A stretch of DNA of 64,000 nucleotides. Origin: Escherichia coli. GTDB lineage: Bacteria; Pseudomonadota; Gammaproteobacteria; Enterobacterales; Enterobacteriaceae. How positions within the stretch are numbered: the first letter of the stretch is position 1; each line of letters begins with the position of its first letter. Of this stretch, positions 11,864-12,601 are shown piece after piece. Both the position numbers and the translations under genes were made by a program. Location: assembly GCF_013315695.1 (NCBI RefSeq), contig NZ_CP054353.1. The stretch is one strand, 5' to 3'. The notes beneath the pieces are model-generated. The model was not told the DNA's origin and did not search any database. It saw only the letters and a program-made list of their open reading frames with translations.

Positions 11864-12000
11864 GTTATTAACCCTCTGTTATATGCCTTTATTTGCTTTT
11901 TTATGCCACTGCATACTGATTAACCCTCATTAATCAGTCGGCAGGTCCATTCTCCCCAAAAATGCAGAATAATCCAACACGAATATGATACTAAAACTTT

Positions 12001-12042
12001 TAAGATGTTTCATTTATCGCTATAGATGTTTCAAAATGTAAA
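12001..12042. promoter_or_regulatory. OmpR-binding region of the ompC/micF divergent promoters (contains TTTACATTTTGAAACATCTA on minus strand)
   Basis: Sequence motif matching the OmpR consensus site read directly, located between ompC and micF. Confidence 0.65.
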
Positions 12043-12197
12043 TACAAGGGAACTTTTTAAGATTATTGCGGAATGGCGAAATAAGCACCTAACATCAAGC
12101 AATAATAATTCAAGGTTAAAATCAATAACTTATTCTTAAGTATTTGACAGCACTGAATGTCAAAACAAAACCTTCACTCGCAACTAGAATAACTCCC

Positions 12198-12290
12198 GCT
12201 ATCATCATTAACTTTATTTATTACCGTCATTCATTTCTGAATGTCTGTTTACCCCTATTTCAACCGGATGCCTCGCATCCGGTTTTTTTT
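12198..12290 (+). ncRNA. micF: MicF antisense sRNA (represses ompF translation)
   Basis: Sequence GCTATCATCATTAACTTTATTTATTACCGTCATTCATTTCTGAATGTCTG... ending in hairpin plus T8, matching micF as I recall it, divergent from ompC. Confidence 0.85.
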
Positions 12291-12601
12291 ACCCTTCTTT
12301 ACACACTTTTCATTATTCTGTGCTACCACAGAAAAACTATAACGCTTGTTAACTATTTCACAAATAATTAACATCAGCATAATTTCCAGCAATCTTCGTT
12401 TATTTGCAATTAATTTCGTTGGGCTTTTTGTAGGTTATTTGTACAGCAAAATGGCGCTTGTACATCTATTTCCCCCAATGCAGGATGATAAATATCACGG
12501 GAGAATAGAAAATCATCAATCAGGTAAGAGTCTGGAATTTCACACTGTACCCTTTATACTGCCCTATCACTTCGCGAAGTTTTAACAGGTCATAAACACG
12601 A

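Follow-up and report, generated by a model that had tools for sequence, protein, structure and literature searches.

A complete and undamaged ompC-micF divergent regulatory unit, as judged from sequence, in a segment of the Escherichia coli chromosome

The intergenic region between ompC and rcsD in the 64-kb stretch of E. coli DNA analysed here, which we refer to in its whole length as the window, is almost certainly the canonical E. coli ompC-micF divergent regulatory unit, with no part missing or damaged at the sequence level. The expected elements are present, with their order, spacing and sequence integrity preserved, and the MicF RNA encoded in the region has the potential to pair with the ompF leader. 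Nothing in the sequence contradicts this canonical reading. The evidence comes from the layout of the locus, the comparison of its control elements with those of K-12, the match of MicF to its RNA family and the distribution of the spacer among complete E. coli genomes.

Gene order at the ompC-rcsD locus

Positions 11864-12601 correspond precisely to the ompC-rcsD intergenic spacer, which measures 738 bp from start codon to start codon, the ATG of ompC being located at 11863-11861 on the minus strand and that of rcsD at 12602 on the plus strand (Table 1). The ompC product is covered over residues 1-367 by the NCBIfam model NF007841 ('porin OmpC') with a score of 763 bits (cut-off 484), and its sequence is 100% identical to that of RefSeq WP_000865589.1 from strain MS 21-1. 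Alignment with K-12 OmpC gives 342 matching columns out of 372, which marks the window gene as a natural allele distinct from that of K-12; the changes are clustered and are accompanied by two 4-residue indels, and the clusters are expected to lie in surface loops. RcsD is far closer to its K-12 counterpart (886 of 891 aligned columns match, stop codon counted) and scores 1567.5 bits with the NCBIfam 'phosphotransferase RcsD' model. Curated NCBIfam models also identified RcsB and RcsC downstream of rcsD, and the order and orientation ompC(−)/micF(+)/rcsD(+)/rcsB(+)/rcsC(−) are those of the K-12 MG1655 annotation. Here micF is an independent gene, transcribed divergently from ompC and situated between ompC and rcsD. 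The original prediction, that micF and an OmpR site lie between ompC and rcsD in the classic arrangement, is thus borne out by the gene order.

Table 1. Features of the ompC-micF-rcsD region (positions in the window)
Feature	Position	Strand	Remarks
ompC CDS	10760..11863	−	367 aa plus stop; full-length porin OmpC allele (NCBIfam)
ompC 5' leader	11864..11944	−	81 nt for a +1 at 11944
MicC pairing target	11872-11896	−	GCAAATAAAGGCATATAACAGAGGG in the ompC leader, presumed target; located by string search
ompC core promoter	11949..11977	−	-35 TTGGAT (11977-11972), 17-bp spacer, -10 GAGAAT (11954-11949), presumed hexamers
OmpR box C3	11982-12001	−	Exact match to K-12
OmpR box C2	12002-12022	−	Exact match to K-12
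OmpR box C1	12023-12042	−	Exact match to K-12; TTTACATTTTGAAACATCTA
marbox (mar/sox/rob box)	12147..12166	+	Overlaps the micF -35 region; same as K-12
micF -10 hexamer	12185..12190	+	TAGAAT; 7 bp upstream of micF +1 (G, 12198)
micF sRNA gene	12198..12290	+	93 nt; Rfam RF00033; aligns to K-12 ncRNA b4439
MicF antisense region	12198-12230	+	nt 1-33; predicted pairing partner of the ompF translation start
micF terminator hairpin	12262-12284, then T tract to 12290	+	Found by terminator scan
Spacer from micF terminator to rcsD	12291..12601	+	Presumed site of the rcsD promoter and leader; has five of the eight substitutions relative to K-12
rcsD CDS	12602..15274	+	890 aa, intact; NCBIfam NF007907

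Two further features of the window were recorded alongside these genes. The spacer between rcsB and rcsC contains a match on the minus strand (15951-16027) to the Rfam family naRNA4 (RF02564), with a score of 65.5 bits (gathering score 59.5); we take this family to represent REP-type repeats. GyrA (36570-39197, minus strand; 875 aa) is wild type at S83 and D87 and is therefore free of the common quinolone-resistance substitutions at these positions.

The ompC promoter and its OmpR boxes

The ompC promoter is preceded by three OmpR boxes that abut one another and stop 4 bp short of the -35 hexamer (11977), the arrangement of tandem boxes that distinguishes an OmpR-activated ompC promoter. The most upstream of these, C1 (TTTACATTTTGAAACATCTA), is the OmpR site quoted in the original prediction; it has a single exact occurrence and was found in none of 100 shuffled sequences even when two mismatches were allowed, and its sequence agrees with the C1 oligonucleotide printed in PMC2586830. 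All three boxes are on the minus strand, in the orientation of ompC. For C2 and C3 we started from box sequences that we presume to be the correct ones, and direct comparison demonstrates that the copies in the window are the same as those in K-12. Binding of OmpR~P to these boxes and activation at high osmolarity would be expected from their identity to the K-12 sites.

The core promoter of ompC is an exact string match to K-12 throughout, and the hexamers listed in Table 1 are those that we take to be the -35 and -10 elements of this promoter. Downstream, the leader (11864-11943) is likewise the same as in K-12 and contains GCAAATAAAGGCATATAACAGAGGG, which we take to be the target of MicC. 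The regulatory region shared by micF and ompC has been described as 253 bp in length, with OmpR sites serving both genes (PMC1489923). In the window, 253 bp lie between 11944 and 12198, the same count as in that description; since the micF start is at 12198, we place the probable ompC start site at 11944.

A generic sigma-70 scan was of no help in locating the promoters: it returned two consensus matches where 2.8 were expected by chance and missed both ompC and micF, each of which is an activator-dependent promoter with weak hexamers. As the scan missed them, the two promoters were located by their identity to K-12.

micF, its promoter and its terminator

On the micF side, the -10 hexamer is the same as in K-12 and is invariant across an eight-strain alignment, and the marbox occupies the position relative to this hexamer that is characteristic of such a box. 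The marbox consensus AYNGCACNNWNNRYYAAAY is matched at 12147-12165 with one mismatch, and because consensus matches in the window are close to chance in number (4 found, 1.19 expected), the assignment of the marbox rests on its position and its identity to K-12, the consensus itself being non-discriminating as independent evidence. Among the other matches, a perfect one on the plus strand at 57839-57857 is located between the divergent ORFs 56362-57720 (minus strand) and 57993-59621 (plus strand), probably glpT and glpA; given the near-chance frequency of such matches, this one may be meaningless.

The micF gene is recognised by the Rfam family RF00033 at 12197-12290 on the plus strand, with a score of 116.8 bits (gathering score 79, E = 9.5e-18) and an alignment that spans the entire model, positions 1-94 of 94. 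Scanning the whole window at Rfam gathering thresholds produced two matches, MicF and the naRNA4 element described above; a permissive scan (E <= 1) of 11700-12750 gave MicF as the sole match and no other structured RNA, and the segment between the micF terminator and rcsD (12291-12601) had no Rfam family match even at this threshold. The window MicF conforms to RF00033 in both sequence and secondary structure, with both hairpins and the terminator of the family present. The internal hairpin includes one pair marked as non-canonical, at a point where the K-12 sequence is no different. The terminator is of the rho-independent type; its 10-bp stem, in which six pairs are G-C, is closed by a loop of 3 nt and followed by a T tract. 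The family match and the stem-loop with its T tract (12262-12290) together substantiate the claim in the original prediction that micF is present with its terminator.

Alignment with the K-12 reference, the check that had been proposed for micF, reveals one difference, at nt 82 (position 12279), which is C in the window and T in K-12. This nucleotide is located in the 3' arm of the terminator stem, where it replaces the G-U pair of K-12 with a G-C pair, and the predicted energy of the hairpin is -15.8 kcal/mol compared with -12.9 kcal/mol in K-12, making it 2.9 kcal/mol more stable. The window agrees with the RF00033 consensus at this terminator-stem position, where the T of K-12 is the minority form, and the exact micF sequence of the window is the majority allele, being found in 3231 of 5374 complete E. 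coli genomes. The remainder of the RNA, nt 1-81, is the same as in K-12, including the region antisense to ompF.

Predicted pairing of MicF with the ompF leader

As ompF is absent from the window, pairing was computed with the ompF leader of K-12. The first 35 nt of MicF are predicted to anneal to this leader at -27.4 kcal/mol, in a duplex that spans both the Shine-Dalgarno sequence and the AUG, whereas shuffled versions of the MicF segment (n=1000) give -13.6 ± 2.9 kcal/mol with the same target (z = -4.7). With the K-12 leader as target, the window RNA therefore possesses the 5' complementarity to the ompF translation-initiation region that defines MicF. Because 5077 of 5420 complete E. coli genomes share the leader at 99% identity or better, the ompF target is very likely unchanged in the strain from which the window derives. 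We considered whether a base change in micF might alter the pairing and reject this: nt 82 lies outside the pairing region and carries the majority allele, and no base that pairs with ompF is altered. The kind of MicF mismatch that would have counted against the original prediction is therefore absent. Transcription of micF as an RNA of ~93 nt, binding of this RNA by Hfq and repression of OmpF would all be anticipated from what is known of K-12.

Conservation of the spacer and a minority promoter haplotype

In K-12 MG1655 (NC_000913.3 2311646-2316160; micF is b4439) the spacer is likewise 738 bp long, and global alignment with the window reveals eight substitutions and no indels. The substitutions are at 11944, 12044, 12279, 12376, 12397, 12413, 12417 and 12510, and none falls in the OmpR boxes, the -35 and -10 hexamers, the marbox, the MicC target or nt 1-81 of MicF. 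Between 12045 and 12278, an interval that includes the marbox, the micF promoter and these 81 nt, the two sequences are 100% identical.

Of 5426 complete E. coli genomes, 5376 contain the spacer, in every case on the chromosome, and in 5366 of these at least 80% of the query is covered; approximately 1% of complete genomes are thus without an intact spacer, 50 having no match and 10 falling below 80% coverage. In at least one strain (NZ_CP116159.1) the ompC promoter segment is split into two places. Identity over all 738 bp is 100% in at least eight complete genomes, namely E. coli MS 21-1 (NZ_CP146670.1) and seven others among those listed. An alignment of eight diverse strains, which include K-12, O157:H7 and APEC O18, gave a spacer of 738 bp in every case, with a mean column identity of 99%, and MicF is invariant in this alignment except at two terminator positions. 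The OmpR boxes are nearly invariant in the same strains, with the exception of APEC O18, which has three changes across the edge of C2 and in C1. A patch at 12044-12049, starting 2 bp beyond C1, is unusually variable and exists in five versions in the eight strains.

Two of the differences from K-12 are close to ompC control elements. At 11944, the inferred ompC +1, the window has C on the ompC strand where K-12 has T, a substitution that would therefore be located at or beside the start site; one other sampled strain has G at this position. At 12044, 2 bp upstream of and outside box C1, the window has A instead of G. Exact matches to the 91-mers that surround these sites are found in 648 of 5371 complete genomes (11899-11989) and 450 of 5370 (11999-12089), respectively, so that both represent minority natural haplotypes. 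Their rarity, taken together with the more stable MicF terminator, raises the question of whether these alleles change the output of ompC and micF and so shift the OmpC/OmpF balance relative to K-12. We regard this as very unlikely, since every recognised element is unchanged, position 12044 belongs to the patch that varies freely among strains, APEC O18 varies even inside C1, and with respect to the terminator it is K-12 that is the odd one out, the window allele being both the commonest in the species and the one in the Rfam consensus. Moreover, the haplotype is carried by hundreds of natural isolates, which is consistent with neutral lineage variation, and we see no reason to regard the substitution at 11944 as anything more than this. 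Were the balance nevertheless altered relative to K-12, the haplotype would constitute a natural variant in the regulation of the porins.

An IS1 insertion in atoS

The window contains a complete IS1 of 768 bp at 19565-20332, approximately 7 kb from the end of the ompC-micF region, in agreement with the IS1 lesion elsewhere in the window to which the original prediction referred. The element, whose left inverted repeat is at 20310-20332 on the minus strand, splits atoS, which encodes a sensor kinase, and on either side of it is one copy of a 9-bp target duplication, ATCTGGGCC (19556-19564 and 20333-20341). The two pieces of atoS correspond to profile positions 1-183 (N-terminal) and 194-615 (C-terminal), and removal in silico of IS1 and one copy of ATCTGGGCC restores an atoS ORF of 612 codons. 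The junction of IS1 with atoS, as one contiguous match, is absent from all 5426 complete E. coli genomes. The gene downstream, atoC (21643-23028), is intact.

Defects in trans-acting factors occur in some IS-rich lineages. That the ompC-micF locus is intact in sequence and yet silent, through a defective trans factor encoded outside the window (OmpR/EnvZ, Hfq or ompF), is extremely unlikely: IS elements have been active in this genome, as the inactivation of a two-component sensor gene within the window demonstrates, but there is no evidence for a trans-factor defect, the 64-kb window has a single IS1, and the neighbouring genes rcsD, rcsB, rcsC, ompC and gyrA are all of full length.

The original prediction added that IS elements disrupt porin loci in some laboratory lineages. 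The part of PMC3446290 available to us partly supports such a view, in that it reports the E. coli B genome to be without micF, with OmpF raised as a result, but the loss is not attributed there to an IS element. The B lineage (BL21, REL606) shares the species and the chromosomal neighbourhood with the window, which is free of a micF lesion of the kind described in that part of the report.

Implications for porin regulation

Protein binding, transcription and repression in vivo at this locus would be expected to follow those of the characterised K-12 elements with which its own are identical. Phosphorylated OmpR, bound to C1-C2-C3 immediately upstream of the ompC -35 hexamer, would activate ompC leftwards, and the same upstream OmpR region would activate micF rightwards. 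MarA, SoxS and Rob would act on the micF promoter through the marbox, and the 93-nt MicF RNA, ending at the rho-independent terminator, would use its 5' ~33 nt to pair with the Shine-Dalgarno/AUG region of the ompF mRNA, blocking translation and lowering OmpF synthesis. A second sRNA, MicC, would act on its target in the ompC leader. With regard to the original claim that the porin regulatory circuitry is intact, what holds is that ompC, micF and the cis elements are intact; integrity of the whole circuit is not deducible from the window, because ompF, ompR/envZ, hfq and micC lie outside it.

The ompC-micF locus is already known and its form here is ordinary; it offers nothing new for porin regulation. 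The value of the result is one of quality control: the window represents an ordinary segment of the E. coli chromosome in which ompC, micF and their shared control region are undamaged, in contrast to E. coli B, as described in the portion of PMC3446290 referred to above, and to the roughly one in a hundred complete genomes that are without an intact spacer.
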